Source: Lentisphaerota bacterium
GTDB taxonomy: Bacteria > Verrucomicrobiota > Kiritimatiellia > UBA8416 > JAUUYL01
NCBI GenBank assembly: GCA_030590485.1
Contig: JAUUYL010000001.1
Span: forward strand, 21,760-85,759
Reading direction: 5' to 3'
DNA: 64,000 nucleotides
The first letter of the stretch is position 1. The number at the start of each line of letters is the position of its first letter. Below the pieces are notes generated by a model. It was not told the origin of the DNA. It did no database searches and saw only the letters and a list, made by a program, of their open reading frames with translations. This document shows positions 14,963-63,401 of this stretch, in pieces. Both the position numbers and the translations under genes were made by a program.

Positions 14963-14967
14963 GTCAT

Positions 14968-48472: not shown

Positions 48473-48491
48473 ACTTCTCCCTCTCGTAGCC

Positions 48492-48524
48492 AACCGTCCC
48501 ACCGTCCCACAGTCCACAGTCCAT
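48492..48524. repeat. right arm of the inverted repeat flanking the four-helix-bundle gene
   Basis: CCAACCGTCCCACCGTCCCACAGTCCACAGTCC, read directly from the sequence. Confidence 0.6.
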
Positions 48525-48709: not shown

Positions 48710-49297
48710 TTAGTCTTTCAACTGAAAACGAAATGTGTATTCAACATCTTCCCCACCGACAGGAGCACCGGACTGAGAAATGAAAATCGCTTTATTCATC
48801 GCCTTTACAGCCGCCCTGTCCAGGGCATGATAACCGCTGGACTCAGCAATCAACACGTCGAGAGCATGACCGGAATCGCCCAAGACCGCCGTCACGACTA
48901 CCACACCTTCTTCGCCCCTGATTCTCGACCCATATGGATATTGCGGCCTTATCGTACTTTGCGCCACCAGTTTACTATCAACACCCTTCTCAAGAAAATC
49001 CGCATTACGCTCCTCTTCCGGGGGCGGCTTGAGATGAACAATCTCTTCGATCAGCTTTAAAGGATACAATGCTTCAGCAGGCAACGGCAACACCGGCTCT
49101 TGAATCTCAGGCTCCACTTTTTTTACAACTGGAGGAAGAAGCGTGAGCTCAACGCTCGATTCACCCGTCTGAAAAACTGGCTGAACCAGACCGACCTTCA
49201 TTCTGAAAAAACTGCCAGCACAGTAGCCTGCTGCCACATGAAGCAACAAAGCCAGAAGAAACGCTCGAATGAAATCTGATGTCCTGTTTCTTTTCAC
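48710..49297 (-). CDS. tonB: TonB-family energy transducer (TonB_C domain; could function as TolA-like)
   Basis: N-terminal TM helix, Pro/Glu-rich spacer, C-terminal PQYPYGSRIRGEEGVVVVTAVLGDSGHALDVLIAESSGYHALDRAAVKAM. Confidence 0.8.
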   Translation of the reverse strand: MKRNRTSDFIRAFLLALLLHVAAGYCAGSFFRMKVGLVQPVFQTGESSVELTLLPPVVKKVEPEIQEPVLPLPAEALYPLKLIEEIVHLKPPPEEERNADFLEKGVDSKLVAQSTIRPQYPYGSRIRGEEGVVVVTAVLGDSGHALDVLIAESSGYHALDRAAVKAMNKAIFISQSGAPVGGEDVEYTFRFQLKD

Positions 49298-49300
49298 ACG

Positions 49301-49708
49301 CTATTCCGCTGCTTCATTCCTTACCTGAAAAGAAACCGTATTAATATCCGCCCCCCGTAGAGCTGAAAGCAATTCTATCGCGACACCAAGATCGGCAGCC
49401 TTATCACCACTTATCAGCACAGGATAATCCATTTCTTTTACACGCTCAGCCGCCCTGACGACAGCCTCCCTGATATCAACAACGTCACCATCAATAGAGA
49501 TTTCGTTTTCTGCAGACACCGCGATAATAATAGTCCTTAAATTCTCCGTAACACCAGCCGCAGACGGAAGATTTACCCTCACGCCCCTATACATAACCAT
49601 TGAAAGCATGACGTAAACGAAAAAGACCAGAAGCAGGAAGACAACATCGATTAACGGAACAATCTCTATCCTGGCCCTTCGATTTTCGAATCCTGTCGTG
49701 ACCTGCAT
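49301..49708 (-). CDS. exbD: ExbD/TolR biopolymer transport protein
   Basis: IVPLIDVVFLLLVFF TM helix. 135 aa. Confidence 0.85.
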   Translation of the reverse strand: MQVTTGFENRRARIEIVPLIDVVFLLLVFFVYVMLSMVMYRGVRVNLPSAAGVTENLRTIIIAVSAENEISIDGDVVDIREAVVRAAERVKEMDYPVLISGDKAADLGVAIELLSALRGADINTVSFQVRNEAAE

Positions 49709-49717
49709 ATCGCGTTC

Positions 49718-50365
49718 CTAACTACGCCTGACGGCACTTTTCCTGTAGACTATCTCGAGCTCACTTCCAATTGCCTCAAGCAACTTAGCCGCACTCTGAA
49801 CACGAGACACAAAGTAATTGTATGGCATCAACGTTACAAGAGCTATAGAGAGACCCGTGGCAGTTGTAATCAAAGCCTGCGCAATACCTCCCGTTACAGC
49901 TGCTGGATCTTCGATCCCACTGGCTCCAAGCAAATCAAACGATTCAATAATGCCAATTACCGTGCCCAATATTCCAAGCAAGGGTGCCATCGTGATTATC
50001 GTATCAAGAACCGTCAGACCTGATTTCATTTTCTCCACTTCTCGATTGGCAGCCAACTGCATCACATCGCTCAGACCATGCTCCCTGTGCTTAAGCCCCT
50101 CACCGACTACACGCATGATATAATTCTTATCTTCGGAACAGTTCTTAATAGCTGACAGATAATCACCTGACTCAGCAAGATCCAGCGTGTCAGTTATAAA
50201 TCTTGCGCTATCCCTGTCACGCTCCCTGAACCAGAAACAAAATCGCTCAAGTGCAATTGTCACTGAAAGCAGTGAGCACACAAATAAAGGCCACATCACA
50301 AGGCCACCCCGTTCAAAAAGCCCAAAAACAAATTCCATCATAACCTCGCATTCCACTCTTATCAT
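49718..50365 (-). CDS. exbB: MotA/TolQ/ExbB proton channel
   Basis: 3 TM helices. GILGTVIGIIESF. Confidence 0.85.
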   Translation of the reverse strand: MIRVECEVMMEFVFGLFERGGLVMWPLFVCSLLSVTIALERFCFWFRERDRDSARFITDTLDLAESGDYLSAIKNCSEDKNYIMRVVGEGLKHREHGLSDVMQLAANREVEKMKSGLTVLDTIITMAPLLGILGTVIGIIESFDLLGASGIEDPAAVTGGIAQALITTATGLSIALVTLMPYNYFVSRVQSAAKLLEAIGSELEIVYRKSAVRRS

Positions 50366-50377
50366 ACATCTGCCACG

Positions 50378-51520
50378 CTAAAACCTGCGCATCTTATCTT
50401 TTATCGGCCTTGTATGCCTATCTGTTTGTCGCTCTCCACAATGACTGGCGATATTCAGAAGCACACCTACACATGCCATCGACATCAGCAAGCTTGACCC
50501 GCCATAACTTATAAAGGGCAATGCAATCCCCTTCGTGGGCGCACTACCCGTTACAACCGCTATGTTTATGAACGCCTGCGTGACGATCAACATTGTAAAC
50601 CCAAACGCAGTAAGCTTGCCAAACAAATCGGGAGCCTTCAAGCTGATTAGCATACCACAGATCAAAAAACCCACATATATCAGTACAACCGCCAGAGATG
50701 CTATAAAACCAAGCTCTTCTCCAATTATCGCGAATATGAAGTCGGTATGCGCTTCAGGAAGATACAACTGCTTCTGAATGCTGTTCCCAAGCCCTACCCC
50801 CGACCAACCCCCATTGATGAATGCTATTTTAGCCTGATTCAATTGGTGCGCTTTCTCAATATACGCAGGATCCTCAGGATGAAGAAACGCCATTATTCTC
50901 GACCATCGAAGCTCATTCTGCATCACATATAAAAGGCCGAGGAATACACCTATGAGCGACGTAGGTAGCAGATAACTCAGTCTTGTTCCCGCAGCAAACA
51001 TCATTGTAGCGCACACAACGCAAATCAGAACCGACGTCCCAAGATCCGTCTCGGCAAAAATCAGACCAACAAAAACAAGCATACCTAAAATAGGCATCAC
51101 CAGACCTTCTACAAAATAATCGGCTTTTCGGCCCACATAGCTGAGCCATGCCGCCATGCCGACTACTATGGAAAACTTTGCAACCTCGGAAGACTGAAGA
51201 GTAAGCGGCCCCAGATGAATCCATCTGCTACTTCCCCCGACCCGAAGCCCTACCCCTGGAACAAATACTGCAATAAGAAGGAGGACTGACAGAATACCCA
51301 ACGCAGGTGCTAAACGTTTCCAGTAATGATAATCAAATCGGGCACATGCAAGGCCCGCCAAAAGAGAAACCACTAACCAGCCAAGTTGTTTGTTAAGGAA
51401 ATACTGAGGATTACCGAACGTCGCGGAGCCCTTGACGCTGCTGGTGCTGGCAAGTATGACTATACCCAGCGACAACAACACCACGACCAGACCAATCAGC
51501 GCACTTGACGTTTTCCGCAT
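50378..51520 (-). CDS. ftsW: FtsW/RodA/SpoVE (SEDS) peptidoglycan glycosyltransferase; FtsW by dcw context
   Basis: 380 aa with 10 TM helices. SEDS family motifs. Lies immediately after murD-LysM. Confidence 0.85.
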   Translation of the reverse strand: MRKTSSALIGLVVVLLSLGIVILASTSSVKGSATFGNPQYFLNKQLGWLVVSLLAGLACARFDYHYWKRLAPALGILSVLLLIAVFVPGVGLRVGGSSRWIHLGPLTLQSSEVAKFSIVVGMAAWLSYVGRKADYFVEGLVMPILGMLVFVGLIFAETDLGTSVLICVVCATMMFAAGTRLSYLLPTSLIGVFLGLLYVMQNELRWSRIMAFLHPEDPAYIEKAHQLNQAKIAFINGGWSGVGLGNSIQKQLYLPEAHTDFIFAIIGEELGFIASLAVVLIYVGFLICGMLISLKAPDLFGKLTAFGFTMLIVTQAFINIAVVTGSAPTKGIALPFISYGGSSLLMSMACVGVLLNIASHCGERQTDRHTRPIKDKMRRF

Positions 51521-51522
51521 AT

Positions 51523-52404
51523 CTACTCAGATAGAGGAATCAGCAGAACCTGTCCAGGCTTCAACTCCCCGCCGGCAACATTGTTAAACTCACGGATTTT
51601 CTCTTCACTGACAAGCCATTGCATGGAAATACGCCTTAAATCCTCACCCTTCTGGACAACATGTTTTTCAGTGATGACCGCCCTCGTTTTGTTGGATACA
51701 GGTTCCTTTGCAGTTACAGATACGGCCTGAACCGACGCCGCGGCTGAACCGACCGGAAGAGCACCTACTGTCTTTATTGTCTTAACGGGAGCCATTGTGA
51801 TTTCTTTCGCAGAACTTTTCTTCGCCAGTTGCGCAACATTCACTCCGGGAATAATCAGTTTCTGTCCGACTACAATCCGCTCACCCTTGACCCCGTTTGC
51901 CTGTCGAATGTCATCAACCTTAACACCGTACTTCTGCGCAATGACACCAAGACAATCACCAGGCCGCACAACATACGAGCCACCAGGCGTAGCCGATTTC
52001 TTAGCAACTGACTTTCTTGAAGAAGTCGCCTTCTTAGAAGCGGCACTCACGCTCACCTTACCCGGCAAAACAAGTCGCTGCCCTACTCTGATGATATTCT
52101 TATTGCTTATCCCATTAAGAGAAACTATTTCAGACACCGACACACCATATCTGTAAGCTATGCTGGATATAGAATCTCCAGACTTAACAGTATAGGGTGT
52201 TGTCTCGGACGGCCAAACTATTGCAGCAGGTTTTATCGTAGGCTTTACATCTTCGACACCTACTCTAGTCGGGGGCATCATTGGCGAAGCAATGTCTGTC
52301 GATCTCTGCGGTCTCGTTGTACCGCAACCCTGAATCAAAACGATACCTCCAATCGCAAGACAATGTGCAAGTACAACAATTCCGAAAATGGCTGATGTTT
52401 TCAT
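51523..52404 (-). CDS. secreted protein with three LysM peptidoglycan-binding domains
   Basis: Signal peptide [20 protein letters not shown]. LysM repeats [56 protein letters not shown] and [28 protein letters not shown]. Confidence 0.8.
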
Positions 52405-52408
52405 AATA

Positions 52409-53743
52409 TCAAGTCTCCTTCTGTATTATTTGCTTAAATTTACGGCCTCTGTCCTTATAATTCTCAAACTGATCAAAACTGGCACAACCAGGGGAGAGCA
52501 ATATAATTTCGCCTTCAGACGAATCACTGTGCGCCATGCGAAGCGCATTTCTCAAGTCGCCGCATTCCCTGCAATCAACGGCATCACTCCAAGCCTCGTT
52601 CAGTTCTGCAGAAGCTTCACCGATAAGATATATGGTCTTTACCCTTTTGGCTAGTACTTCTTTAACTTTATCAGAACTTTTTTCCTTCAACTGCCCTCCC
52701 GCGATAAGCAGGACGCCCTTCCCCGCCATTTCCAGGCCTGCCAGCATCGCCGTAAGATTAGTTGCCTTGGAATCATCCACGAATCGAACACCGTCAAAAG
52801 TCCCCACATTCTCCATCCTATGAGGCAATGGCTCGAAATTCATGATCGAATCGGCAATATCATCAGCCTCTATTGCGCATTCCTTAAGTACTGCAGCGCC
52901 CGCAGCTGCCGTAAGTCCTAAAATTGAATTGTCAAAATAGCTCCCCGCTATGTCTATTTCTTTCATCTGCCCGTTCTGTGCCCAACTGATTTTCCCTGCA
53001 TCAAATCCAAAATCTACCTCGCCGTCCAATCCAAAGGAGACCCATTTGTTCTCTCCGGAAGACAACGTCTTGACAGCCTCCAATTCGGACGACAAGACTA
53101 TTCCTGTTCCATCCTCCTGCATACCGCTAAACAAACGCGCCTTCATAGCCATATAAGTCTCCATATCGCCATGTCTATCCAGATGATCAGGCTGAACATT
53201 TAACAGCACTCCTATCCTGGGACTGAATGCATCCACCTTCTCAAGCTGAAAAGAGCTTACCTCCAATACAATAACATCAAGATTCGTCGTGTCCTTAGCT
53301 ACCGCACAAACCGGGGTCCCATAATTTCCCGCAACTACAGTCCTGAGACCAGACCGCCCCAGCGCATCACCGCACAACTTAACCATTGTGCTTTTCCCGT
53401 TCGTCCCCGTCACAGCCACTATCGGGCACTCGCAACGGCTCGCACCCAACTCCAATTCAGAAATCACAGGCATACGCCTTTCCGCTGTCTCGACCCATTC
53501 GGCGCTCGCCGATATTCCCGGACTCACGACGCAAAGGTCAAAATTCCCCGACGGCAACTCATCGCAACCAAGCTGAACCTCTGCACCCGCATCCAACAAT
53601 TCTCTTTTTCTTTCATCAAGAACAGCACTCATCGAGGCGTCCACCGCCATCACTTCAGTGCCCTCAGACAAAAGCAGTTTCGTGGCTTCGACGCCGCTTA
53701 CACCAAGCCCCAGCACCAACGCTTTGTTATAACCATCAAGCAT
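52409..53743 (-). CDS. murD: UDP-N-acetylmuramoylalanine--D-glutamate ligase
   Basis: [15 protein letters not shown] and Mur ligase middle/C domains. Position mraY-murD. Confidence 0.9.
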
Positions 53744-53776
53744 ACAACCATTAACCCTTTCAGCCGTAGGCTGAAG

Positions 53777-54886
53777 CTATCTCATCTTCAATGTCAAAAT
53801 CCCAAGCAATGCAAAGATAATCGAAAGTATCCAGAATCTCACTACCACCTGAGTCTCACTCCATTTCTTAAGTTCAAAATGATGATGAAGAGGCGCCATT
53901 GCAAATATTCGTTTTCCTGTCAGCTTAAACGACATTACCTGCAGTATCACACTCATGGCCTCAATCACAAATACACCGCCTACGATCACCAGCACTACTT
54001 CCTGCTTTATCAATACTGCAACCATGGCTATGGACCCTCCAAGAGCAAGACTGCCTGTGTCCCCCATAAACACCTGTGCGGGATGACAATTGAACCACAA
54101 GAATCCCAGACACGAGCCCATGAGACATCCGCAAAAGACAGCCAATTCACCCGATCCCGGCACATACGGAACATTCAGATAACCCGAAAAAATTGCATGC
54201 CCCGCAACATATGACATAATCAAATAGGACAGGGCTACCGAACTACTGCACCCTATTGCCAACCCATCAAGCCCATCAGTCAGATTAACCGCATTTGAAC
54301 ACCCGACAATAACACCTACCATAAAAATAAAAGTGACAATCAAGCCCATATCGTTCACCAAAGGCTCCTTGAGAAATGGAACCATGAGCTGGCGCAAGAG
54401 AACCCTGGACTCCGGCATGGAGTTCAGTGCATATACTATAACTCCCGTCCAAATCAGTTGAAGCGCAAGCTTGACCCGTGACCGTAAGCCCTTTGATCTT
54501 TTTTTTGATATCGACCTGTAGTCATCCCAGAACCCAACAAGCCCCATATAAAAGAGTGTAAGAAGAACCAGCCATGTATTTATATTGTTCAGCGCCCCCC
54601 AGAGAAGCATGGAAAGTGTTATTGACGCTATTATAATTATCCCGCCCATGGTCGGCGTCCCCTCTTTATTCGCGTGCATCTCATACAATGCGGGTGCCTC
54701 AGCATTGCGAATAATCTGCCCCATCTTGAATCTTTTTAATGCCGCAATAAGGTACGGTCCTATTATCACACTTATAATAAATGCCGTGCCCGCACCGGCA
54801 ACCGTTCGCACGGTGACATACTTCAACACCCTCAAAGGTGTTAACGACCAAGCCAGTTCGTTTATCTGGTATAAATAATAAATCAT
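53777..54886 (-). CDS. mraY: phospho-N-acetylmuramoyl-pentapeptide transferase
   Basis: NAVNLTDGLDGLA and GDTGSLALGG. Confidence 0.95.
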   Translation of the reverse strand: MIYYLYQINELAWSLTPLRVLKYVTVRTVAGAGTAFIISVIIGPYLIAALKRFKMGQIIRNAEAPALYEMHANKEGTPTMGGIIIIASITLSMLLWGALNNINTWLVLLTLFYMGLVGFWDDYRSISKKRSKGLRSRVKLALQLIWTGVIVYALNSMPESRVLLRQLMVPFLKEPLVNDMGLIVTFIFMVGVIVGCSNAVNLTDGLDGLAIGCSSSVALSYLIMSYVAGHAIFSGYLNVPYVPGSGELAVFCGCLMGSCLGFLWFNCHPAQVFMGDTGSLALGGSIAMVAVLIKQEVVLVIVGGVFVIEAMSVILQVMSFKLTGKRIFAMAPLHHHFELKKWSETQVVVRFWILSIIFALLGILTLKMR

Positions 54887-54903
54887 CTACCTACTCCACC
54901 TGA

Positions 54904-55107
54904 TTATTCATCGCCCCAAAGCATCAGACTCGGAGGGTCGCCATTAGGCACAACCTCTTTATTCAGACTCCGTATATTCCTGACATTCTGTTCCTCATAT
55001 GCTTTTTGAAGCTTCTCCATGCTTCGTACTACCCCTCGGCCACTTGTTTCCATGTCGCCATTCTGATATTCAGAGTTGATCTTAACCATTGTGTCACCTC
55101 CTGACAA
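54904..55107 (-). CDS. small hydrophilic hypothetical protein (61-67 aa) between murF and mraY
   Basis: ORF with 17-nt spacers to both neighbours, in operon orientation. No TM segment and no known motif. Confidence 0.35.
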   Translation of the reverse strand: MSGGDTMVKINSEYQNGDMETSGRGVVRSMEKLQKAYEEQNVRNIRSLNKEVVPNGDPPSLMLWGDE

Positions 55108-55124
55108 ATAGGATTACTCACACT

Positions 55125-56624
55125 TTATTCCAAATGCATCTGCACCGTCTCCATTATTTCCTCCAACTTCATGCTCCTGGATGCTTTCAGCAAAACTGCG
55201 TCACCATTATCAATATTCTTTTCGAGAACTTCAGCAGCTTCAGCATTATTCACACACATGTATATTCTATCGGAATCATAGCCAGTTGTTTCGATACCCC
55301 TGGATATCATATCGCCAAATCCGCCTATCAGAACGACCCCACCCCAATTCCCTTCTCCAACATATTCACCCAATCGCACATGCTCACTAGACTGCATCCG
55401 GCCGAGCTCGCTCATCCCGGCAAGGACAAGCCATTTATCGCCATCAACAGCCTCATCCTCAAATGCGCTGATTGAAGCGCGCATACTTAAAGGGTTCGCA
55501 TTATATGCATCATTAATCATCGTGATATCACCCATTTTTACTTTCTCCCATCTCATTGACATTGGTTTATAGTTTTCAAGAGCTGCTTTAATCCGTTTCC
55601 ATCCAACGTTCTGCCCTCTAGCAATAGCCACCGCCATCAGCGCATTAATAATATTATGACGTCCGGGTACAACCGGAGAAAACAACATCTCTTCGCCTGA
55701 AAATACTTCTTTTACCAGGACCTTTCCCGTCCCCTCGATAATCACATAGTTATAGTCTGTGTTCTTCGATTCCGAAACCGTGATCACCTTTTCTGTCGCC
55801 GCCTGCTTAACCAGATCATAATAATCATCATCCGCGTTCAAAACAGAAACGCCATCCTCTGGTAAAGAACGAAGCAAGTCGCTCTTTTCATCCGCAATCG
55901 CTTCAACCGAATCAAAGAACTCTATATGGACAGGCCCGACATTCGTCACCACCCCCCAATCGGGCTTCAGTATAGAACATAAATCAGCGATCTCACCCGG
56001 ATGATTAGTTCCTAATTCAAAAACCCCCCTCTCTGTAGCTCGATCCATCTTCAGAATGCTCATCGGCAACCCTATATCGTTGTTCCAATTTCCCAAAGTG
56101 CTAGCCGTCTCAAAAGAACTTTCAAGGATTTGAGCAGTCATCTCCTTGACAGTTGACTTACCGGCACTTCCCGTGACAGCTATTATGTCAGGATCGACCT
56201 TTTCCCTATATCCTCTGGCGATATCAAGCAACGCTGCCCTAGTATCATCCACAACAAGCAAAGGTGAACCCCTAAGCTTAACATCCGACTGATCTCCCGA
56301 TTCCGAATCCAGCGATGCTTGAAACCACGCTCTATTGACTATCGCGCCGCAGGCTCTCTTGCGTAGAGCATCACCAACAAAATCATGCCCATCATATTTC
56401 TCTCCCTGTATCGCAACATACAGATCATTCTTATTGAGCGTACGCGTATCCTTTGAAAACCCCACAACTCGAGGCGGCTGCAAGCTTACCCACTCGCCGC
56501 CACTCCAAAGCGCCAGATCACCCGCTGTATATCTAATATCCATTCTCTCGCTCTCTTGTCGCGGCAGAGTGCTTGCATCCCGAACTTGATTCGGGGCCGA
56601 AGGCGACGCCGGATCACTCTTCAC
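55125..56624 (-). CDS. murF: UDP-MurNAc-tripeptide--D-alanyl-D-alanine ligase
   Basis: AVTGSAGKSTVKEM and DAYNANPLSM. ATGA overlap with the murE stop; an internal start MDIRYTAGDL is also possible. Confidence 0.9.
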   Translation of the reverse strand: MKSDPASPSAPNQVRDASTLPRQESERMDIRYTAGDLALWSGGEWVSLQPPRVVGFSKDTRTLNKNDLYVAIQGEKYDGHDFVGDALRKRACGAIVNRAWFQASLDSESGDQSDVKLRGSPLLVVDDTRAALLDIARGYREKVDPDIIAVTGSAGKSTVKEMTAQILESSFETASTLGNWNNDIGLPMSILKMDRATERGVFELGTNHPGEIADLCSILKPDWGVVTNVGPVHIEFFDSVEAIADEKSDLLRSLPEDGVSVLNADDDYYDLVKQAATEKVITVSESKNTDYNYVIIEGTGKVLVKEVFSGEEMLFSPVVPGRHNIINALMAVAIARGQNVGWKRIKAALENYKPMSMRWEKVKMGDITMINDAYNANPLSMRASISAFEDEAVDGDKWLVLAGMSELGRMQSSEHVRLGEYVGEGNWGGVVLIGGFGDMISRGIETTGYDSDRIYMCVNNAEAAEVLEKNIDNGDAVLLKASRSMKLEEIMETVQMHLE

Positions 56625-58063
56625 TCCCCAATTGCCTCTTGAGCCACCTGCCTGTCATCAAACGGCACTGTTGTATTCAACATTTCCTGAAAACGCTCAT
56701 GACCCTTCCCCGCTATCAGAAGGACATCACCCTCCTGAGCCATACCAACACCCTTGATGATTGCATCACGCCTATCCTCAATAATCTCGTAATTGCAAAA
56801 CCCGTTAAATCCTGACTTAATTTCATCCAAAATTACCGATGGATCTTCTCCTCTAGAATTATCTGACGTAAGAAACGTATAATCCGCAATCGAACCCGCA
56901 ATCTTACCCATAGCCGGCCTCTTACTACGGTCTCTGTTCCCTCCACATCCAAAGACAACTATCAGTCTGTTTTCTGTAATCTCTCTGAGCGTAAGTAAAA
57001 CTTTCTCAAGAGCATCATCCGTATGAGCGTAATCCACGAACACCTGAAAGCCACCGCGATCTGCCCTGATTACTTCAAGCCGGCCTGGAATATTAGCTAC
57101 TGACGACAAAACCTCCGCAATCAGATCAAGGTCTATACCCGCAGCACCACAAACCGACGCAACAGCCAGCATATTACTGACATTGTACCTGCCAAGCAGA
57201 TTGGACTGAATACTCGCCTCGCCCCATGGCGACTGTATGACGAACCCCGTACCCTGCGCTGACAACCGAATCTCTGCTGCCGTAACTTCCGCCGTTTCCT
57301 CCAGCCCGTAGGAAATCTTCTCTGCAGTAATATCTTCACAGGCAAGCAATTCTCTACCACGAGAATCATCAGCATTAATAATGGCAACAGAACTTTTCGC
57401 CCCCCTGCCGAGCCCGAGAAACAGCTTCTTTTTCGCTTCGAAATACTCATCCATTGTGCCGTGATAATCCAAATGATCCCTGCTTAGGTTAGTAAAGACC
57501 GCTATGTCATAATCCACAAACGCCACCCGCTTCTGATCAATTGCATGGGACGAGACCTCCATCACCACACTCTTGCATCCAGATTTTAGCATTTCTGCCA
57601 ACATTGCCTGAAGATCAGGGGCGTCCAACGTCGTTCTCACCGCGGGAATCACACGTTCTCCCACTCGATACTCAACGGTTGTCATTAAACCTGGATTCAT
57701 ATCTGCCGCCTGGAAAATACTATGAACAAGGTAAGCTATGGTTGTCTTGCCATTCGTGCCGGTAATGCCGGTCATCTGCATTGAGTCCGCGGGGCTTCCG
57801 TAGTATTTGCACGATATTTCGGCGAGAGCCTGCCGTGCATCCTCAACGACAACCTCAAGACCTCCCGTCGTCTTGCCACCCGCAGCCCCCTCTCTGACAA
57901 CCGCAACAGCACCTCGGTTCACAGCCTCTTCCACGAAATCAACGCCATCGTCCCTGCTACCACGAATCGCCACATATATGCAACCAGGCTTTACCTTTCT
58001 GGAATCGTTGGTCACGCCAGATATTCTCTCACCCAAACTCAAAAACATTTCTTCAATATTCAC
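56621..58063 (-). CDS. murE: UDP-MurNAc-L-Ala-D-Glu--2,6-diaminopimelate ligase (DNPR position reads DNSR)
   Basis: ITGTNGKTTIAYLV, Mur ligase domains, LTSDNSRGEDP. Confidence 0.9.
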   Translation of the reverse strand: MNIEEMFLSLGERISGVTNDSRKVKPGCIYVAIRGSRDDGVDFVEEAVNRGAVAVVREGAAGGKTTGGLEVVVEDARQALAEISCKYYGSPADSMQMTGITGTNGKTTIAYLVHSIFQAADMNPGLMTTVEYRVGERVIPAVRTTLDAPDLQAMLAEMLKSGCKSVVMEVSSHAIDQKRVAFVDYDIAVFTNLSRDHLDYHGTMDEYFEAKKKLFLGLGRGAKSSVAIINADDSRGRELLACEDITAEKISYGLEETAEVTAAEIRLSAQGTGFVIQSPWGEASIQSNLLGRYNVSNMLAVASVCGAAGIDLDLIAEVLSSVANIPGRLEVIRADRGGFQVFVDYAHTDDALEKVLLTLREITENRLIVVFGCGGNRDRSKRPAMGKIAGSIADYTFLTSDNSRGEDPSVILDEIKSGFNGFCNYEIIEDRRDAIIKGVGMAQEGDVLLIAGKGHERFQEMLNTTVPFDDRQVAQEAIGE

Positions 58064-58070
58064 AATACGC

Positions 58071-59774
58071 TTACCTTTGCGCTACTTCTGTCCATGTTGC
58101 CGGCTGTATGTCGAAATAACTTACCGTCTGATCAACAATTTCACGGAATGCGGGTGCCGCCACCACTCCACCGGCATGAACACCTTCAGGTTCATCAACA
58201 ACAACAATCACGCCTATCTGCGGATTCTCAGCCGGAACAAAACCAACAAACGACCCCACCCAGGCAGAATAAGTTCCGTCCTTTACTTTCTGAGCAGTCC
58301 CAGTCTTACCCGCCACCGTAAATCCATCAATCCTTGCCCTTCTTCCCGTACCCCCGTTTTCAGTGACCGTAGCCAGGATCTTTGCCATCTCGTTTGCTGC
58401 AGTAACTCCAATAGGCCTGTTGACGACTTTCGGTCCTCCGCGATAAATAACTTCGCCATCACCACTGGTAATCTGTTTGACCAGATAAGGCTTCATCCTG
58501 TAGCCGTTGTTGGCTATCGTGCAGAATGTATTGAGCACCTGTAGCGCTGTTACGGAATATGCCTGCCCGAACGCAATGCGTGTGGGACAGATTTTGGACC
58601 ATCTCTTTATAGGCGCAAGAACACCAGCCTCTTCACCGGGCAACTCTATCCCCATCCTGTCACCAACACCAAATTGCTTCATGTAGTCGTACTGTAGCTT
58701 CCGCCCCATCATCAACGCAATCTTAGCTGTCCCAATATTGCTCGACTTCTTGATGATGTCCGCCACACTCATAATGCCATACGAGTGACCTCCATCCGTA
58801 AGCACCCTTCCCCCATAGAACCACTGCCCATTCTCACAATCAATCATCGTAGACGGCGTGATGACACCTGCGTTCAGTGCTGCGGCAATAGTCAAAGCCT
58901 TCATGGTTGAGCCTGGCTCAAAGTTGACTCCTATCGCCCTGTTTAATTTAAGATCGGAGTCCGCAGTACGAAAATCATTAAGATTGAACGACGGACGACT
59001 CGCCATTCCAAGTATTTCACCAGTTTCTATTCTTTGGACAATAGCCCATGCACCTTTGGGATTGTGTTTTGCGACCACCTCATCCAATGCCTTTTCCACC
59101 ATGTACTGAATATTTTGATCAATCGTCAATGTAACATCAGCACCTTCCATGGCCGGAATATATGTGCCTCGCTTCGTGTACAGCTCGCGCCGCCGAGCAT
59201 CGACCTTACTCTCAAGCAATCCAGGCGACCCCCGGAGATAACTGTCAACCCTTTGCTCCACTCCAAGACTGCCCACGCCCTCATAATTAACAAATCCGAG
59301 AACATGACTCATAAAATTGCCCTGAGGATAATACCGAACCGTCTTGTCCTGCATAAACACGCCATCAACCTTAAGCTCCTGTATGTTCGCAATCCTGTCT
59401 TCATGAACATATCTCTCTACATACGCAAACTCCTTTACAGAGCGTTTTCTTATGTTCTGAGCAATCTTATTGGCATCTTTCCCAAGGTTTCTTGCGAGCA
59501 ATGCAGAAACCTCATCTACAGTTTCATTTTCGACAAGTGTCTTAGGACTGACACAAACATCTTTTACACCAAGATTCATCGCAAGAATATTATCCCCACC
59601 CTTACAATCAAATATGTAACCACGCCCCGCGATTATCGTACGCTCAATCGCCCGTTTTGACTGCTGGTGACCACCTAAATGCAAAAAGGCCAGGCGAAAG
59701 CCCAGCCCTCCAAGTGCCACCAAAAGCATGGTCGCGCTCACAAATGCACGTATATAGAACCCACGGCTACTCAT
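58071..59774 (-). CDS. ftsI: penicillin-binding protein 3 / peptidoglycan D,D-transpeptidase FtsI
   Basis: N-terminal TM. STMK (SxxK), SSN and KTGT motifs. Confidence 0.9.
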   Translation of the reverse strand: MSSRGFYIRAFVSATMLLVALGGLGFRLAFLHLGGHQQSKRAIERTIIAGRGYIFDCKGGDNILAMNLGVKDVCVSPKTLVENETVDEVSALLARNLGKDANKIAQNIRKRSVKEFAYVERYVHEDRIANIQELKVDGVFMQDKTVRYYPQGNFMSHVLGFVNYEGVGSLGVEQRVDSYLRGSPGLLESKVDARRRELYTKRGTYIPAMEGADVTLTIDQNIQYMVEKALDEVVAKHNPKGAWAIVQRIETGEILGMASRPSFNLNDFRTADSDLKLNRAIGVNFEPGSTMKALTIAAALNAGVITPSTMIDCENGQWFYGGRVLTDGGHSYGIMSVADIIKKSSNIGTAKIALMMGRKLQYDYMKQFGVGDRMGIELPGEEAGVLAPIKRWSKICPTRIAFGQAYSVTALQVLNTFCTIANNGYRMKPYLVKQITSGDGEVIYRGGPKVVNRPIGVTAANEMAKILATVTENGGTGRRARIDGFTVAGKTGTAQKVKDGTYSAWVGSFVGFVPAENPQIGVIVVVDEPEGVHAGGVVAAPAFREIVDQTVSYFDIQPATWTEVAQR

Positions 59775-60129
59775 TCATCACAACCCTATCCAGTTTGGCA
59801 TATCCATTACGATACTCACTGTTATCATACAATCGAACAATCTGGTCGCGGCGAGGCCAACTCATCACCATTCCATTCTGATTAAGTACACGCTCCAGAT
59901 TTCTCGGTGATTTCATTCGACTCCACCGGTACTCTTCATTTAGATATCTCTTTACCAGAATCTTTTTCTTTCCCTCTTCCTTCTTTATCTCACGACCCAG
60001 CATCTCACAACGAGAGCCCAACCAGAGATAAGCCAAAGCAAACACAGAAACTATCACCACGAACCCTGCGAAAGGTGCCGGAAACACAAACCCATCAACC
60101 TTCTTTTTGTTGCGCTTTCTCCTTGCCAT
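59767..60129 (-). CDS. ftsL: cell-division protein FtsL-like (single TM plus coiled coil)
   Basis: Basic N-terminus MARRKRNKKK, TM helix FAGFVVIVSVFALAYLWL, short periplasmic helix. Sits in the rsmH-ftsI slot. Confidence 0.6.
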   Translation of the reverse strand: MARRKRNKKKVDGFVFPAPFAGFVVIVSVFALAYLWLGSRCEMLGREIKKEEGKKKILVKRYLNEEYRWSRMKSPRNLERVLNQNGMVMSWPRRDQIVRLYDNSEYRNGYAKLDRVVMNE

Positions 60130-60146
60130 TCTTAAAGCCTTTCTCT

Positions 60147-61067
60147 TTACACTCGTTCAGCGACTCTCAGCTTTGCCGATCTCGCCCTTGAATTTCTTTC
60201 AATCTCTTCGGAAGACGGTTTTACAAACTTTCTTGTGACAAGCTTGACTACAGGCTCTTCGCCAACCCAAGCACTGCCGCCAGCCTGTAACGATTCCCAT
60301 CTTCCCACATGCTTCTTAAAAAACTGTTTTACTATCCTGTCCTCCAGGCTGTGATAACTGATCACCGCAAATCGCCCGCCCGACGGCAACAGGCCAAGAC
60401 CAGAAGCCAAACCACTTTCCAGCACCTCCAACTCCTTGTTTACATATATTCTCAGTGCCTGAAAAACCCGTGTAGCGGGATGAATCCTTCCGCGCCGCCC
60501 ACCAAATACCTTCTCAACAAGCTCGGCCAACTGGCCCGTAGTCCGAATCGGCCCATTCTTCCTCTCACGCACAATCGCCCTGGCAACAGGCATTGAACGT
60601 CGTTCTTCACCGTATTTTCTAAATATATCAGCCAGTTCCATCACATCCGCAGTATTAACTATGCTTTCAGCCGACATATCTTCCTCCATATTCATCCGCA
60701 TATCCAACGGACCATCATTTCTGATGCTGAATCCTCGCCCCCCAACATCCAACTGCTCCGAAGAAACGCCCAGATCCAGCAAAATTCCATCAACACGATC
60801 CAACCCGTTCGCCCGCGCCTTCTCCCCTATCTCCGAGAAATTCCCATGTACGACCTTTACCCTGTCGCCAAACTCATCCAATCTTTTGCTTGTCCGCTCA
60901 ACCGCTTCCGTATCCCTGTCTATCGCAAGAACAAAGGACCCTTCCTCCGCCTTTAACATTGCCGCAGAGTGACCACCGCTTCCTGCCGTTCCGTCGACAT
61001 AGACCCCGCCATCCTTCACATCAAGAAGCTCAAGCACTTCACTCACTAATACCGGAACATGCGCCAT
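60147..61067 (-). CDS. rsmH: 16S rRNA (cytosine1402-N4)-methyltransferase
   Basis: MAHVPVLVSEVLELL...VDGTAGSGGHS. Confidence 0.9.
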   Translation of the reverse strand: MAHVPVLVSEVLELLDVKDGGVYVDGTAGSGGHSAAMLKAEEGSFVLAIDRDTEAVERTSKRLDEFGDRVKVVHGNFSEIGEKARANGLDRVDGILLDLGVSSEQLDVGGRGFSIRNDGPLDMRMNMEEDMSAESIVNTADVMELADIFRKYGEERRSMPVARAIVRERKNGPIRTTGQLAELVEKVFGGRRGRIHPATRVFQALRIYVNKELEVLESGLASGLGLLPSGGRFAVISYHSLEDRIVKQFFKKHVGRWESLQAGGSAWVGEEPVVKLVTRKFVKPSSEEIERNSRARSAKLRVAERV

Positions 61068-61071
61068 ACAA

Positions 61072-61103
61072 CCTACTGCCTACTGCCTATTGCCTATTGC
61101 CTA
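61072..61103. repeat. heptanucleotide tandem repeat (CCTACTG x2, CCTATTG x2, CCTA) filling the mraZ-rsmH intergenic spacer
   Basis: Direct reading. On the coding (minus) strand it is TAGGCAA TAGGCAA TAGGCAG TAGGCAG TAGG, ending 4 nt before the rsmH ATG. Confidence 0.6.
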
Positions 61104-61105
61104 AA

Positions 61106-61585
61106 TTAGAAATCTATATATCTGCCTGCCTCCGCAAGCTGAGCCTGATCAATCTCACCAGTATCAGGACGGTTTTCAGGCTTCCACAACTGAAACTTCG
61201 CCATGGCACCAACCATCAACACCTGATCCTCTAAACCCGCAAATTCCAACAACCTGTCCTTAACCCTGATTCGCCCCTGCCCATCCCACGAAACCAAGTC
61301 AGACGCCGAACCTAAAATTCTCGCAAACTCCATCGCCTTCCTGTCAGACATGGAGTGCTTGCGCATCTTCTCCATCTTCTCCGCCATCACAGCCGCAGGG
61401 AAAACGTTCAAACACTTATGATAAAAATCAGGAAGCACAAAAAGCCCCTGCGGACCACTTACCTGCGTCCGCCATTCGGAAGGTATTGTCAGCCGTTTCT
61501 TAGGATCCAACGAATGCTGAAACTCCCCGAAAAACACACCTAACCCACTGGCTACACTATGCACATTACTGTCAGAACTGCCCAT
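61106..61585 (-). CDS. mraZ: transcriptional regulator MraZ
   Basis: FFGEFQHSLDPKKRLTIPSEWR and a second MraZ repeat. Start set at the internal ATG (MGSSDS...); track ORF 61106..61615 carries an atypical N-terminal extension. Confidence 0.8.
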   Translation of the reverse strand: MGSSDSNVHSVASGLGVFFGEFQHSLDPKKRLTIPSEWRTQVSGPQGLFVLPDFYHKCLNVFPAAVMAEKMEKMRKHSMSDRKAMEFARILGSASDLVSWDGQGRIRVKDRLLEFAGLEDQVLMVGAMAKFQLWKPENRPDTGEIDQAQLAEAGRYIDF

Positions 61586-61724
61586 CTTAACCCCTTTCTT
61601 GACACAATACACCACATTGACCCACCGATGTCAAACTATTTTTGAGGTTTTTCTGCTTTTTTTGATAACTAGAGCGTTTTAGCACCTTGCCTTTTAGGCT
61701 CATTTAAGGCATATTGCTCCACTT

Positions 61725-63401
61725 ATGAGCAAAAAACGCAAAATCACGCTTACAGCAGCCCTTCCGTACGCGAACGGAGAAATCCATATTGGACATTTGG
61801 TGGAATATCTCCAGGCTGACTTCTGGACTCGGTTTCAGAAATTGCGCGGTCACGAATGCCTCTATTTCTGCGCCGACGATACTCACGGGACACCCATTAT
61901 GATGAGAGCCCGCCAAGAGGGCATCACCCCAGAAGAGCTGATTGAACGCAACCACAAACAACATGTCCTCGACTTCACTGATTTCGGAGTGGATTTCGAC
62001 AACTATTTCACAACCCACTCGGATATCAACAGGGAGTTCTGCAGCGTTCTATACGAACATATAGAAAAGAACGGACATGCCGACATAAGATCTATCAATC
62101 AAACATACTGTAATCATGACAATATCTTCCTGCCAGACCGCTTTGTCAAAGGCACATGCCCAAATTGCAAGGCCAACAACCAATACGGCGACTCATGCGA
62201 CAGCTGCGGCTCGACTTACGCCCCTTCCGAACTAATCGACCCCGCTTGCTCAATCTGCGGCAACACACCAACCACAAAGGAATCTGAACATATATTCTTC
62301 AAACTTAATGACTTTAAAGAGTACCTTACCAATTGGCTTCCCACACACACACCAAAGGAAACCGCGAATAAACTGATGGAATGGTTCGATGAAGACCTCA
62401 AGGACTGGGACATTTCCAGAGATGCACCGTATTTCGGATTTGAAATACCTGGCCATCCGGGAAAATTCTTTTACGTATGGCTCGACGCGCCCGTCGGCTA
62501 CATGGCGTCAGCCAAGGACTGGTGTGATAAAAACAACCGGACTTTCGAGGAAATATGGAATGCAGATGACAGAGAACTCTATCACTTCATAGGCAAGGAT
62601 ATTGTCCGCTTCCATTGCCTGTTCTGGCCATCTATTCTCGATAACGCCGGATTTAAAACCCCGGACCAGGTGTTCGTACACGGATTTCTTACCGTTAATG
62701 GCGAGAAGATGAGCAAGTCTAAAGGAACTTTCATTAATGCACGCACATACCTGAACCACCTGGACCCGCTGTACCTGAGATTTTATTACGCGTGCAAATT
62801 AAACTCATCTTCGGATGATATCGACCTTAACTTCGACGATTTTATCGCGCGCGTAAATTCAGACCTTGTAGGCAAGATAACCAATCTAGCGTCCAGAGGC
62901 GCCCAGATGCTTAACAAGCACCTGGAGGGTAGAATAGGTGATTTGGATGAAGACGGAAAAGCCCTGGTCGATAACGCCCGGGCAAAGTCCGAAGAAATAG
63001 CCGCACATTATGAAGCACGCGATTTCAGCAAGGCTCTGGTAATCATTCGAGATATTGCAGATGAAGCGAACAGATATTTTGACGAAAAGGAGCCATGGAA
63101 GGCAATCAAAGCGGACCCGGAATCCGCACGCCCTATCCTCTCCGCAACCTTAAACCTTTTCAGACTTATCGCAATATACCTTAAACCGATATTGCCGGAG
63201 TACGCGGAAAAGACAGAAACACTGTTTAACGAATCCGCCTTCAACTGGCAATCGGCCCAAACTGTTATCACAAACCACCAGATTGAAAAATACGAATATC
63301 TGGCGTCGAGGATAGACCCCAAACAGGTCGACAAGATTATTGAAGAAACAAAGCACGAACTTGCGGCGGACAAAAAGATCAAAACCCAGCCACAACAGTG
63401 A
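61725..63401 (+). CDS. metG: methionine--tRNA ligase (short form, no C-terminal tRNA-binding domain)
   Basis: PYANGEIHIGHLVEY (HIGH), KMSKSKGT (KMSKS), zinc knuckles CPNCKA...CDSCG...CSICG. Confidence 0.95.
   Translation: MSKKRKITLTAALPYANGEIHIGHLVEYLQADFWTRFQKLRGHECLYFCADDTHGTPIMMRARQEGITPEELIERNHKQHVLDFTDFGVDFDNYFTTHSDINREFCSVLYEHIEKNGHADIRSINQTYCNHDNIFLPDRFVKGTCPNCKANNQYGDSCDSCGSTYAPSELIDPACSICGNTPTTKESEHIFFKLNDFKEYLTNWLPTHTPKETANKLMEWFDEDLKDWDISRDAPYFGFEIPGHPGKFFYVWLDAPVGYMASAKDWCDKNNRTFEEIWNADDRELYHFIGKDIVRFHCLFWPSILDNAGFKTPDQVFVHGFLTVNGEKMSKSKGTFINARTYLNHLDPLYLRFYYACKLNSSSDDIDLNFDDFIARVNSDLVGKITNLASRGAQMLNKHLEGRIGDLDEDGKALVDNARAKSEEIAAHYEARDFSKALVIIRDIADEANRYFDEKEPWKAIKADPESARPILSATLNLFRLIAIYLKPILPEYAEKTETLFNESAFNWQSAQTVITNHQIEKYEYLASRIDPKQVDKIIEETKHELAADKKIKTQPQQ

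Follow-up and report, generated by a model that had tools for sequence, protein, structure and literature searches.

A probable 5′ half of a split dcw cluster with an embedded LysM gene in a Kiritimatiellia bacterium

We analysed a 64-kb stretch of bacterial DNA (hereafter, the window) and consider it probable that it holds the 5′ half of a dcw cluster that is split, arranged as is typical of the class Kiritimatiellia; the reading includes a LysM protein with a lineage-specific division role and an adjoining motor of the ordinary Ton type. Kiritimatiellia belong to the phylum Verrucomicrobiota in the GTDB taxonomy and to Kiritimatiellota in that of NCBI. The genes run in the order mraZ-rsmH-ftsL-ftsI-murE-murF-small ORF-mraY-murD-3×LysM-ftsW-exbB-exbD-tonB, closely spaced and all encoded on the minus strand, and mraZ to ftsW form a single co-directional unit. 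This order had been proposed in an earlier sequence-only reading and is real, with identities resting on Pfam and NCBIfam matches and, for ftsL and the small ORF, which lack a family match, on conservation of position. The range given there, 50378–61615, covers mraZ to ftsW, but exbB-exbD-tonB lie outside it at 48710–50365. The divergent metG (61725–63401) is on the plus strand beside mraZ, and the remaining window genes are for polysaccharide biosynthesis.

Most of the canonical genes exceed the cut-offs of their families: rsmH (mraW), for the 16S rRNA m4C1402 methyltransferase (60147–61067; TIGR00006, 330.5 bits versus 154.3), murE (56621–58063; NF001126, 547.4 versus 373), murF (55125–56624 as the longest ORF; TIGR01143, 369.9 versus 288.6), mraY (53777–54886; TIGR00445, 383.9 versus 192), murD (52409–53743; TIGR01087, 361.8 versus 212) and ftsW, for the SEDS peptidoglycan polymerase (50378–51520; TIGR02614, 351.8 versus 337.5). 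The last is the final canonical dcw gene here, and the RodA model scores below its own cut-off on it. The true start of murF is probably about 27 codons inside the longest ORF, because the alignment of relatives begins only at residue 27–34. The first gene, mraZ (61106–61615), is a clear match (TIGR00242, 77.8 bits, E = 7.5 × 10−22) although below the cut-off of 98.35, and is 50–69% identical to the gene at the same position in relatives. The class B penicillin-binding protein gene ftsI (58071–59774) has SpoVD, PBP2 and FtsI-type models as its top matches, and its orthologues in relatives have PBP_dimer and Transpeptidase domains. Pfam and NCBIfam profile searches found no family for the small bitopic ftsL-like protein of the window (59767–60129); its position is conserved, with 42–75% identity to relatives, and the orthologue in bacterium B17 has a weak FtsL_2 match.

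To place the cluster, we built a neighbour-joining tree from FtsI, MurE, MraY, MurD and FtsW (2,114 columns), using a comparison set of at least 85 loci from a genome scan, which is a sample and not a census. The window groups with loci L003, L086 and bacterium B17 (L004), inside a clade with loci titled Kiritimatiellia and Pontiellaceae, the sister of which is Verrucomicrobiae. The cluster had been called atypical; its front half is instead common to Kiritimatiellia relatives and not peculiar to this genome. Among the sampled loci, the cluster ends at ftsW in all Kiritimatiellia-like loci recovered, whereas 59 of 61 non-PVC loci run from ftsW directly into murG or murC. Neither murG nor ftsQAZ was found 3′ of ftsW in 10 Kiritimatiellia-like loci (L001, L005 and L007–L014; about 1 to 10 kb each), where the next gene is often convergent. 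The reported absence of murG, murC, ddl, ftsQ, ftsA and ftsZ at the cluster extends to the whole 64 kb: tblastn with validated queries detected none of the six proteins, and the sole matches were of the MurC query to the paralogous murE and murF. The view that exbB-exbD-tonB stand in place of these genes is not borne out, as the end at ftsW is common to every recovered Kiritimatiellia-like locus and is older than the link to exbB, which only a single subclade shows. According to published reports, cultured Kiritimatiellota possess FtsZ and undergo binary fission, and V. spinosum has split dcw clusters (PMC5148204, PMC10880615, PMC12283558); because of the former, we read the cluster as split and not as the sign of a reduced divisome. 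The genes murG, murC, ddl and ftsQAZ are most likely elsewhere in this genome, and division in this organism would be FtsZ-based.

Directly after ftsW are genes for an ExbB/TolQ-family proton-channel subunit (49718–50365; PF01618, 107.8 bits), an ExbD/TolR-family subunit (49301–49708; PF02472, 68.5 bits) and a 195-aa TonB-family transducer (48710–49297; TIGR01352, 51.7 bits versus a cut-off of 27.1; PF03544, 45.9 bits). The exbB start is likely ATG 50341/50338, with GAGG 6 nt upstream, as relatives begin at the MEF codons; the 12-nt spacer described between ftsW and exbB is true only of the longest ORF, and the likelier start gives 36–39 nt. The transducer combines a transmembrane helix that contains a His with a spacer rich in Pro and Glu and a canonical TonB_C domain. 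Linkage of ftsW to exbB-exbD-tonB occurs in six genomes (the window, L003, L086, L087, L090 and L091), and the arrangement ftsW-exbB-exbD-tonB(-comM) is conserved only in the subclade of the window. A gene for a YifB/ComM-type Mg-chelatase-like AAA ATPase (46524–48062, minus strand; TIGR00368, 633.3 bits) lies next downstream of the trio as a conserved neighbour in the subclade, directly after tonB in L090 and L091, and is probably not part of its system. We propose that the trio most likely encodes a motor and transducer of the ordinary Ton type and is probably transcribed together with the operon; a role for it in division would be putative. So tight and conserved a linkage of a motor to ftsW in six genomes is more than is usual for an accidental neighbour.

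Another reading makes the trio the equivalent of TolQ, TolR and TolA, with the LysM lipoprotein replacing Pal, so that together with ftsW they would be a co-transcribed, division-linked module serving envelope constriction or outer-membrane tethering. The exbB product is closer to TolQ than to ExbB (NCBIfam tolQ TIGR02796, 87.5 bits, versus exbB TIGR02797, 65.3; solved structures, 53.6 versus 39.2 bits), and the exbD product scores higher with the tolR model (54.8) than with that of ExbD (32.2). All of these model scores are below the curated cut-offs, far below for both scores of the exbB product and for the tolR score, and among solved structures the exbD product matches ExbD and TolR about equally (26.7 and 23.1). 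The linkage itself, with gaps of about 23–125 nt and no terminator-like site found between the genes, fits such a module, as does the probable peptidoglycan-binding lipoprotein nearby. Outside proteobacteria, TolA is proline-rich and ‘virtually indistinguishable from TonB’ (PMC12204202), so a TonB-like third gene is compatible with a Tol role; however, its TonB_C domain is canonical and above the cut-off, and its only matches among solved structures are TonB chains. Neither tolB nor pal is adjacent to the trio in any of the six loci; the published minimal tol-pal locus consists of motor, transducer, tolB and pal (PMC12204202). Furthermore, the trio is linked in one subclade and the LysM gene is far older, a trio of 56% identity in a different Kiritimatiellia MAG lies beside AraC and sulfatase genes, and ExbB homologues at 50–60% identity are widespread in unrelated phyla. 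We therefore regard a Tol-Pal analogue as unlikely, although it fares best among the alternatives.

The 293-aa protein encoded between murD and ftsW (51523–52404) has three LysM domains (PF01476, three stretches, 151.8 bits) at about residues 71–114, 144–187 and 248–291, joined by low-complexity linkers. Pfam and NCBIfam searches found no catalytic domain in it; the DipM, MltD, NlpD and ActS models match only the LysM repeats, far below their cut-offs. A LysM gene occupies this position in 17 of 17 Kiritimatiellia and other Verrucomicrobiota (PVC-like) loci sampled and in none of 61 from other phyla, and the median murD–ftsW gap is 1,070 nt in the former and 78 nt in the latter. Carriers of the gene include MAGs of the Chthoniobacteraceae, Akkermansiaceae and Verrucomicrobiaceae, and a Prosthecobacter genome (L089) has the order murD-LysM-ftsW-murG. 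It is thus an old and stable dcw member throughout Verrucomicrobiota; such genes were marked without comment in a gene-neighbourhood figure of 2016 (PMC4803751). The conserved, hydrophobic N terminus carries His14 and a lipobox-like IQGC motif (Cys27), and V10, H14, G26 and C27 are invariant across the 17 orthologues. From these features the window protein is probably a lipoprotein, whereas the Verrucomicrobiae version would be a bitopic membrane protein. An unusual Gln occupies position −2 of the lipobox, and if a signal peptide is cleaved there, the strong conservation of His14 within it would be hard to account for.

In published V. spinosum TraDIS data, VSP_RS19445 is scored as essential, although the paper does not discuss that gene. 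It lies between mraY (RS19455) and murG (RS19435), is neither murD (RS36300) nor ftsW (RS36295), and is likely the counterpart of the LysM gene, as assigned by locus-tag order and Prosthecobacter synteny. The fixed position of the LysM gene, together with a likely counterpart scored as essential, makes a division-linked, peptidoglycan-binding role a reasonable hypothesis. The protein is probably a lineage-specific division protein and is a credible candidate division factor. It would be an envelope protein without catalytic activity that binds to peptidoglycan, most likely acting with FtsW/FtsI at the septum, where it may recognize or tether new septal peptidoglycan in the manner of the SPOR/LysM divisome accessories FtsN, DipM and NlpD. 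Its strongly conserved membrane segment would contact a membrane partner.

That segment raises the question of whether the LysM protein could act as a force transducer in the way of TonB or TolA, its His helix docking to an ExbB/ExbD-type 5:2 motor and its LysM domains standing in for the TonB_C head so as to probe peptidoglycan or pull on it. The helix is the most conserved region (0.94–0.95 identity versus 0.82–0.89 for the LysM domain in Verrucomicrobiae-type proteins), and 118 of 120 Verrucomicrobiae-type proteins and 63 of 79 of the Kiritimatiellia type retain its His, which fits the published view that a conserved transmembrane His marks the motor-binding proteins TonB, TolA and recently proposed families of transducers, some of them from PVC bacteria (PMC12204202). 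In Verrucomicrobiaceae versions, a proline-rich EP/KP spacer like that of TonB also separates the helix from the C-terminal LysM domain, and in the subclade of the window the motor genes are two genes away. The resemblance is nevertheless one of short motifs: TonB- and TolA-type families match none of the LysM proteins, even with the E-value threshold for whole proteins set to 1, and of the SHLS motif the Ser, Leu and Ser positions are not conserved. A lipobox comes after the helix in Kiritimatiellia proteins, so the helix may be cleaved off. Motor genes are not nearby in most lineages with the LysM gene, and the motor in this operon is already paired with its own TonB. A transducer role for the LysM protein therefore seems improbable, and a peptidoglycan-binding division protein is the reading that we prefer.

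We consider it very improbable that the truncated cluster is the remainder of a true divisome reduction, in which ftsQAZ, and perhaps murG and murC, were lost as in Planctomycetota or Chlamydiota. Such a loss would agree with the failure to find these genes in the window or in the available sequence after ftsW in relatives (about 1 to 10 kb), and the sequence-only reading had seen a likeness to lineages with reduced division gene sets. However, Kiritimatiella glycovorans and Pontiella agarivorans reportedly encode FtsZ and divide by binary fission, and a 2025 PVC survey places Kiritimatiellota among the phyla that keep dcw genes, which are highly conserved there. V. spinosum and Prosthecobacter clusters are likewise split, yet ftsQAZ are elsewhere in those genomes. 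Moreover, the murD, murE, murF, mraY, ftsW and ftsI genes here are intact and reach or exceed the cut-offs of their families, and they would be pointless without MurC, Ddl and MurG.

The hydrophilic protein encoded between murF and mraY was described as 67 aa long. The ORF is present and conserved, but 67 aa is its longest form (54904–55107), and it probably starts at ATG 55089 with the conserved MVKINSE, giving 61 aa. Five orthologues occupy the same murF/mraY junction (the window, L003, L086, L087 and L091), with a C-terminal motif, PNGDPPSLMLWGDE, that is invariant in the four closer ones, near-identical in L091 and found nowhere else among 92 loci. Non-synonymous difference among the four closer orthologues is 0.23–0.40, compared with a saturated synonymous difference of 0.75–0.91; the small ORF is under purifying selection. 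Pfam and NCBIfam searches returned no match, and 5 of 7 matches among 1.84 billion representative proteins are full-length (61–69 aa). The ORF is conserved only in the subclade of the window, where it was added between murF and mraY. The synteny comparison that had been suggested thus finds both the LysM gene and the small ORF in relatives, and although neither has a catalytic domain and the small ORF lacks a family match, the idea that they are recent functionless insertions or annotation artefacts is already contradicted by the 17 of 17 PVC-like loci across classes and by the selection data and retained C-terminal motif, and has next to no likelihood.

Among known systems, the trio resembles ExbB-ExbD-TonB in its three Pfam families, their canonical order, a TonB_C domain above the cut-off, the His helix and the Pro/Glu-rich spacer. 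It differs in that ExbB and ExbD are below the equivalog cut-offs, with a slight lean to TolQ/TolR, and in its unusual position directly after ftsW; the scan of window genes turned up no TonB-dependent receptor. With Tol-Pal it shares a motor that is TolQ-like, a transducer rich in proline and a thematic connection with division, and a predicted peptidoglycan-binding lipoprotein is encoded nearby, but tolB, pal and cpoB are not in the window locus or five related loci, and the transducer head is TonB_C.

The LysM protein recalls Caulobacter DipM and NlpD/ActS, LysM-repeat proteins of the periplasm that bind peptidoglycan at the septum, NlpD being a lipoprotein. DipM is its top NCBIfam match (89.5 bits versus a cut-off of 740), confined to the LysM repeats; unlike these proteins it has no LytM/M23 domain, so activation of amidases or hydrolases by the known mechanism is not expected. 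The Verrucomicrobiae LysM proteins above all recall FtsN in architecture: a short conserved tail in the cytoplasm leads into a transmembrane helix, after which come a long linker of low complexity and, at the C terminus, the domain that binds peptidoglycan. The probable V. spinosum orthologue is scored as essential. However, the binding domain is of the LysM and not the SPOR family, the sequences are not similar, and the cytoplasmic tail of the Kiritimatiellia proteins is only MKT, with a lipobox in addition. For the cluster as a whole, V. spinosum and Prosthecobacter have the same front order, mraW-ftsL-ftsI-murE-murF-mraY-murD-[LysM]-ftsW, with ftsQAZ and murCB elsewhere (PMC12283558, Fig. 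S5; Prosthecobacter L089). Their LysM protein is a bitopic type of 300–400 aa with a cytoplasmic tail, whereas that of the window is a probable three-LysM lipoprotein of about 300 aa. Relative to them, the break in the window falls behind ftsW instead of behind murG, earlier by one gene, and the small ORF and exbB-exbD-tonB are added.

A dcw-type cluster occupies the minus strand of the window and runs from mraZ to tonB as a single co-directional, tightly packed block, with intergenic gaps of −8 to 38 nt, followed by a gap of 192 nt; metG lies upstream of mraZ and is divergent. Curated NCBIfam cut-offs are exceeded by rsmH (60147-61067), murE (56621-58063), murF (55125-56624), mraY (53777-54886), murD (52409-53743) and ftsW (50378-51520). 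The match of mraZ (61106-61615) to its family is clear and falls below the curated NCBIfam cut-off, ftsI (58071-59774) was identified by family scan, and the ftsL-like gene (59767-60129) is assigned only by position and orthology. Interspersed are a small ORF between murF and mraY (54904-55107; no family match) and a gene for a three-LysM protein between murD and ftsW (51523-52404; PF01476, three stretches); after ftsW come exbB (49718-50365; PF01618), exbD (49301-49708; PF02472) and the gene for a TonB_C protein (48710-49297; PF03544 and TIGR01352), all on the minus strand. The gene order proposed from sequence alone is thus confirmed by family scans for each identity, although the range given for it covered the dcw part to ftsW and left out exbB to tonB. 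The first ~27 residues of the longest murF ORF (GTG start) and the first 8–9 of the longest exbB ORF have no counterpart in relatives, and the true start of both genes probably lies further in. The reported 12-nt spacer between ftsW and exbB holds for the longest exbB ORF; from the MEF start of relatives, which has GAGG upstream, it is 36–39 nt.

The window belongs to the class Kiritimatiellia, as established by homologue labels and phylogeny. The MAGs that encode full-length homologues of its LysM protein bear the labels Kiritimatiellae, Lentisphaerae or Verrucomicrobia, and a neighbour-joining tree of concatenated FtsI, MurE, MraY, MurD and FtsW (2,114 columns) places the window beside loci L003 and L086 and ‘bacterium B17’ (L004), in a group inside a clade of loci titled Kiritimatiellia and Pontiellaceae that is sister to Verrucomicrobiae.

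The sequence-only reading had proposed a synteny comparison with related genomes, and we ran it on at least 85 FtsW-anchored loci across bacterial phyla, annotated by tblastn. The window's own species was not among the matches listed in the FtsW-alignment genome scan (best identity, 51%). The LysM gene was found in the murD–ftsW interval in 17 of 17 Kiritimatiellia and Verrucomicrobiota loci (median gap, 1,070 nt) and in none of 61 loci from other phyla (median gap, 78 nt), in both cases among the matches listed. It is therefore not a mere recent insertion, a possibility that the earlier reading had left standing, but a constant part of the dcw cluster throughout Verrucomicrobiota, and we regard this as the worthwhile result of the analysis.

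Two forms of the protein occur. The Kiritimatiellia form (~300 aa) has a hydrophobic N terminus that closes with a lipobox-like (L/M)QGC, or in some VSGC or VAGC, followed by three LysM domains with low-complexity linkers. In the window protein the site reads L-I-Q-G-C27, with an invariant Cys and an atypical Gln at position −2 (pattern sought, [LVI][ASTVI][GAS]C; orthologues carry VSGC, VAGC and LQGC). PF01476 matches this protein above the gathering score in three stretches (151.8 bits), solved LysM proteins also match, and Pfam and NCBIfam scans identified no catalytic domain. The Verrucomicrobiae form is bitopic: a conserved ~45-aa cytoplasmic tail leads into a transmembrane helix, and a long linker rich in Ala and Pro, which has EP/KP repeats in Verrucomicrobiaceae, connects this to between one and three LysM domains. 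A membrane-helix motif containing a conserved His is common to both forms (AHCLAIGG in the window, LIHVVLIGG in Verrucomicrobiaceae). This His is retained by 118 of 120 Verrucomicrobiae-type and 63 of 79 Kiritimatiellia-type proteins, and no other part of the protein is as well conserved as the helix (identity in Verrucomicrobiae-type proteins, 0.94–0.95 versus 0.82–0.89 for the LysM domain). The best 120 matches of a homologue search from a Verrucomicrobiaceae LysM protein were all Prosthecobacter-like. In the Chthoniobacteraceae locus L016, the dcw LysM gene is locally duplicated (397-1470), with two tandem copies between murD and ftsW that encode transmembrane-His plus LysM proteins of 213 and 140 aa. 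Separately, a contig titled Muribaculaceae (L071), probably mis-binned, carries a Kiritimatiellia-type murD, putative three-LysM lipoprotein (VAGC lipobox) and ftsW, and murG does not follow ftsW.

The cluster does not continue into murG-murC-ddl-ftsQ-ftsA-ftsZ as in the full E. coli-type arrangement. Searches by tblastn with MurG, MurC, Ddl, FtsQ, FtsA and FtsZ queries validated against Pfam returned none of these genes in the 64-kb window, which upholds their reported absence, and none 3′ of ftsW in the available downstream sequence of Kiritimatiellia relatives. Among the matches listed, the cluster ends at ftsW in all Kiritimatiellia-like loci (L001–L014), and ftsW leads directly to murG or murC in 59 of 61 loci of other phyla. 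The gene after ftsW in Kiritimatiellia-like loci often lies on the opposite strand, or else has no relation to the cluster (ahcY, a methyltransferase gene or one for a 515-aa unknown protein). Truncation after ftsW is therefore a class trait, ordinary for the lineage and not peculiar to this genome. Within Verrucomicrobiota the break point varies: L015 and L016 are unbroken (ftsW-murG-murCB-ddl-ftsQAZ), the break follows murG in Prosthecobacter and in V. spinosum (PMC12283558 Fig. S5), and it follows ftsW in two Verrucomicrobiae MAGs (L038 and L041). A ~770-aa ORF at the expected place of murC in L015 (12210-14522) and L016 (3728-6037) is about the size of a murC-murB fusion, as described for V. 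spinosum and other Verrucomicrobiales (PMC4803751). Other irregularities include the lack of mraY between murF and murD in L011 (1575-4299) and L013 (159-4027), ~6.9 kb inserted between mraY and murD in L008 (821-7693), and an in-frame stop codon mid-ftsW in the ‘Verrucomicrobiota bacterium’ MAG L005 (10976-12109), caused perhaps by a sequencing error, or else marking a pseudogene or recoding.

The sequence-only reading had likened the short cluster to reduced division gene sets, and this likeness is not supported. MurD, MurE, MurF and MraY, all intact here, are of use only with MurC, Ddl and MurG. Cultured Kiritimatiellota are reported both to encode FtsZ and to divide by binary fission (PMC5148204; PMC10880615), and a 2025 survey grouped Kiritimatiellota with phyla that keep dcw genes (PMC12283558). 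Taken together, these observations lead us to conclude that the window's lineage, and by extension presumably the source genome itself, has a split cluster rather than a reduced divisome.

The small ORF at the murF/mraY junction is likewise conserved in relatives. Five orthologues of 61–76 aa occupy the same junction (window, L003, L086, L087 and L091) and share a C-terminal motif, PNGDPPS(L/V)MLWG(D/E), that occurs nowhere else in 92 loci. Its reported length of 67 aa is that of the longest ORF; the protein is probably 61 aa, from a conserved MVKINSE start. Among the four closer orthologues the non-synonymous difference is 0.23–0.40 and synonymous sites are saturated (0.75–0.91), so the ORF encodes a real protein under purifying selection and is not a recent functionless insertion. 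The protein is hydrophilic, with no family match in Pfam or NCBIfam. When 1.84 billion representative proteins were searched exhaustively with HMMER, seven matched at E values up to 0.001: five are full-length (61–69 aa), whereas two long proteins align only locally. Among the loci compared, the ORF is absent from B17 and from more distant Kiritimatiellia. A different 60-aa ORF, between murE and murF in L005 (5717-5899), lacks the PNGDPPSLMLWGDE motif of the window's small protein.

Linkage of ftsW to the exbB-exbD-tonB trio was found in the window, L003, L086, L087, L091 and bacterium B17; in B17 it spans a contig break, FtsW running to residue 85 at the end of one contig and resuming at residue 87 on another, which goes on through exbB-exbD-tonB-comM. 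As neither L001 nor the other Kiritimatiellia loci compared have it, the linkage, confined to one subclade, arose after the cluster was already truncated; that the trio stands in place of murG to ftsZ, as had been suggested, is not supported. Elsewhere, a 56%-identical trio adjoins AraC and sulfatase genes in another MAG, and ExbB homologues of 50–60% identity occur in anammox bacteria and Thermodesulfobacteriota. A metagenome scan with an ExbB alignment returned one unrelated 1.2-kb locus among the matches listed, with back-translated patterns that are highly degenerate. The trio is probably co-transcribed with the operon: no terminator-like site was seen between ftsW and the trio. Promoter and terminator consensus scans of 47.9–62 kb were uninformative, with counts that equalled the shuffled expectation. 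Beyond the trio, a ‘23S rRNA intervening sequence’ four-helix-bundle gene (bAvd-like; 48056-48517, minus strand) lies between tonB and comM only in the window, comM directly following tonB in L090 and L091; a copy of the same family after ftsW in L005 (12175-12543) makes it look like a small gene moving into operon ends. Downstream of comM, a 294-aa protein (45606-46490, minus strand) has a signal-peptide-like N terminus and no Pfam or NCBIfam match.

MotA_ExbB, ExbD and TonB_C domains all occur in this one operon (PF01618, PF02472 and PF03544). The third protein is a canonical TonB_C protein above cut-off (TIGR01352, 51.7 versus 27.1) and matches only TonB structures; no TonB-dependent outer-membrane transporter was found among the window genes scanned. 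ExbB/ExbD equivalog level is not reached (exbB, 65.3 versus 206.2; ExbD models, 28–32 versus 123–216). A Tol-like role in division, as the sequence-only reading had envisaged, is an unlikely though live rival. ExbB does lean to TolQ, scoring higher with it than with ExbB in NCBIfam (87.5 versus 65.3 bits) and among solved structures (53.6 versus 39.2 bits), but TolQ and TolR equivalog scores are also below cut-offs (tolQ, 87.5 versus 221; tolR, 54.8 versus 127.3), and ExbD is about equal with ExbD and TolR among solved structures. Non-proteobacterial TolA cannot be separated from TonB by sequence, and tol-pal loci are defined by tolB and pal, close together with motor and transducer (PMC12204202). 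Neither tolB nor pal was found after the trio in the window, L003, L086, L087, L090 or L091; on these grounds we read the trio as a motor and transducer of Ton type.

It is more doubtful still that the LysM protein itself is motor-coupled in the manner of TonB or TolA. The conserved His of its well-kept helix is reminiscent of the His through which TonB, TolA and newly proposed transducer families bind their motor (PMC12204202), and the EP/KP spacer of the Verrucomicrobiaceae form is TonB-like. However, the other SHLS positions are not kept in the helix, no TonB- or TolA-type family matched any of seven dcw LysM proteins (Pfam, whole-protein E-value threshold of 1), and the resemblance is at motif level only. 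Equally improbable is the broadest combination, in which an essential Verrucomicrobiota-specific divisome component couples its His helix to a proton-driven ExbB/ExbD-type motor and, in the subclade, the trio and the putative LysM lipoprotein, transcribed together with ftsW, make up a septal envelope module resembling Tol-Pal; if true, it would define a new class of peptidoglycan-directed force transducer. The earlier interpretation is partly supported overall. The small protein and the motor linkage of the subclade are secondary leads, the conserved ftsW-exbBD-tonB linkage being the second, weaker lead on how outer-membrane constriction might be powered with no recognisable tol-pal beside the genes.

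The other ~43 kb of the window hold a polysaccharide biosynthesis cluster rich in sulfotransferases and an AbiE toxin–antitoxin pair. The cluster (~40 kb, within 1-43000) encodes many GT4 glycosyltransferases, at least five sulfotransferases (12488-13429, 13961-14995, 30666-31433, 31430-32281 and 38814-39698), methyltransferases, a B12/radical-SAM enzyme, an ABC exporter (33257-35179) and Wzy-like proteins. GC content drops from ~0.46 to 0.37–0.40 over the 20–42-kb stretch, suggesting that this is an acquired island for making a sulfated glycan. Between this island and the dcw-side genes sits the pair of AbiEi antitoxin and AbiEii nucleotidyltransferase toxin (43930-45352, minus strand; type IV toxin–antitoxin, abortive infection).

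PVC bacteria offer the foremost natural test case of how division machinery can be rewired, yet dcw surveys of them count only canonical genes. An extra LysM gene occupies a fixed murD/ftsW place in every sampled member of Verrucomicrobiota (GTDB sense, Kiritimatiellia included), and its fixed place, conserved anchor and likely, essential-scored V. spinosum counterpart make the protein a concrete, testable divisome candidate; V. spinosum is now genetically tractable. That counterpart, VSP_RS19445, was scored essential in published V. spinosum TraDIS data, without comment by the authors. Situated between mraY (RS19455) and murG (RS19435), it is distinct from both murD (RS36300) and ftsW (RS36295); given the Prosthecobacter order mraY-murD-LysM-ftsW-murG, it is very probably the LysM gene, as judged from locus-tag order and synteny. 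LysM is nowhere mentioned in the V. spinosum paper (PMC12283558), and a gene-neighbourhood figure published in 2016 flags ‘LysM-containing protein coding genes’ by a triangle but leaves them undiscussed (PMC4803751). Our literature search found no paper that combines ‘dcw cluster’, ‘LysM’ and Verrucomicrobia. The gene is probably essential and is not known to have been studied before.

Most likely, the LysM protein would be a non-enzymatic peptidoglycan-binding envelope protein that acts with FtsW/FtsI at the septum and whose membrane segment would make a specific contact. It is a candidate lineage-specific divisome protein, possibly a stand-in for FtsN-type or DipM-type factors, from which the window protein differs in domain content. 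DipM, NlpD and ActS have a C-terminal LytM (M23) domain, active or degenerate, whereas the window protein matches LysM families only (Pfam); its NCBIfam scores are far below cut-off (DipM, 89.5 versus 740; NlpD, 23.4 versus 311; ActS, 60 versus 375), and the DipM, NlpD, ActS and MltD matches span only the LysM repeats. FtsN has a C-terminal SPOR domain and a cytoplasmic FtsA-binding tail; the window protein has no SPOR match in Pfam or NCBIfam and, unlike FtsN, a cytoplasmic part that consists of MKT only.
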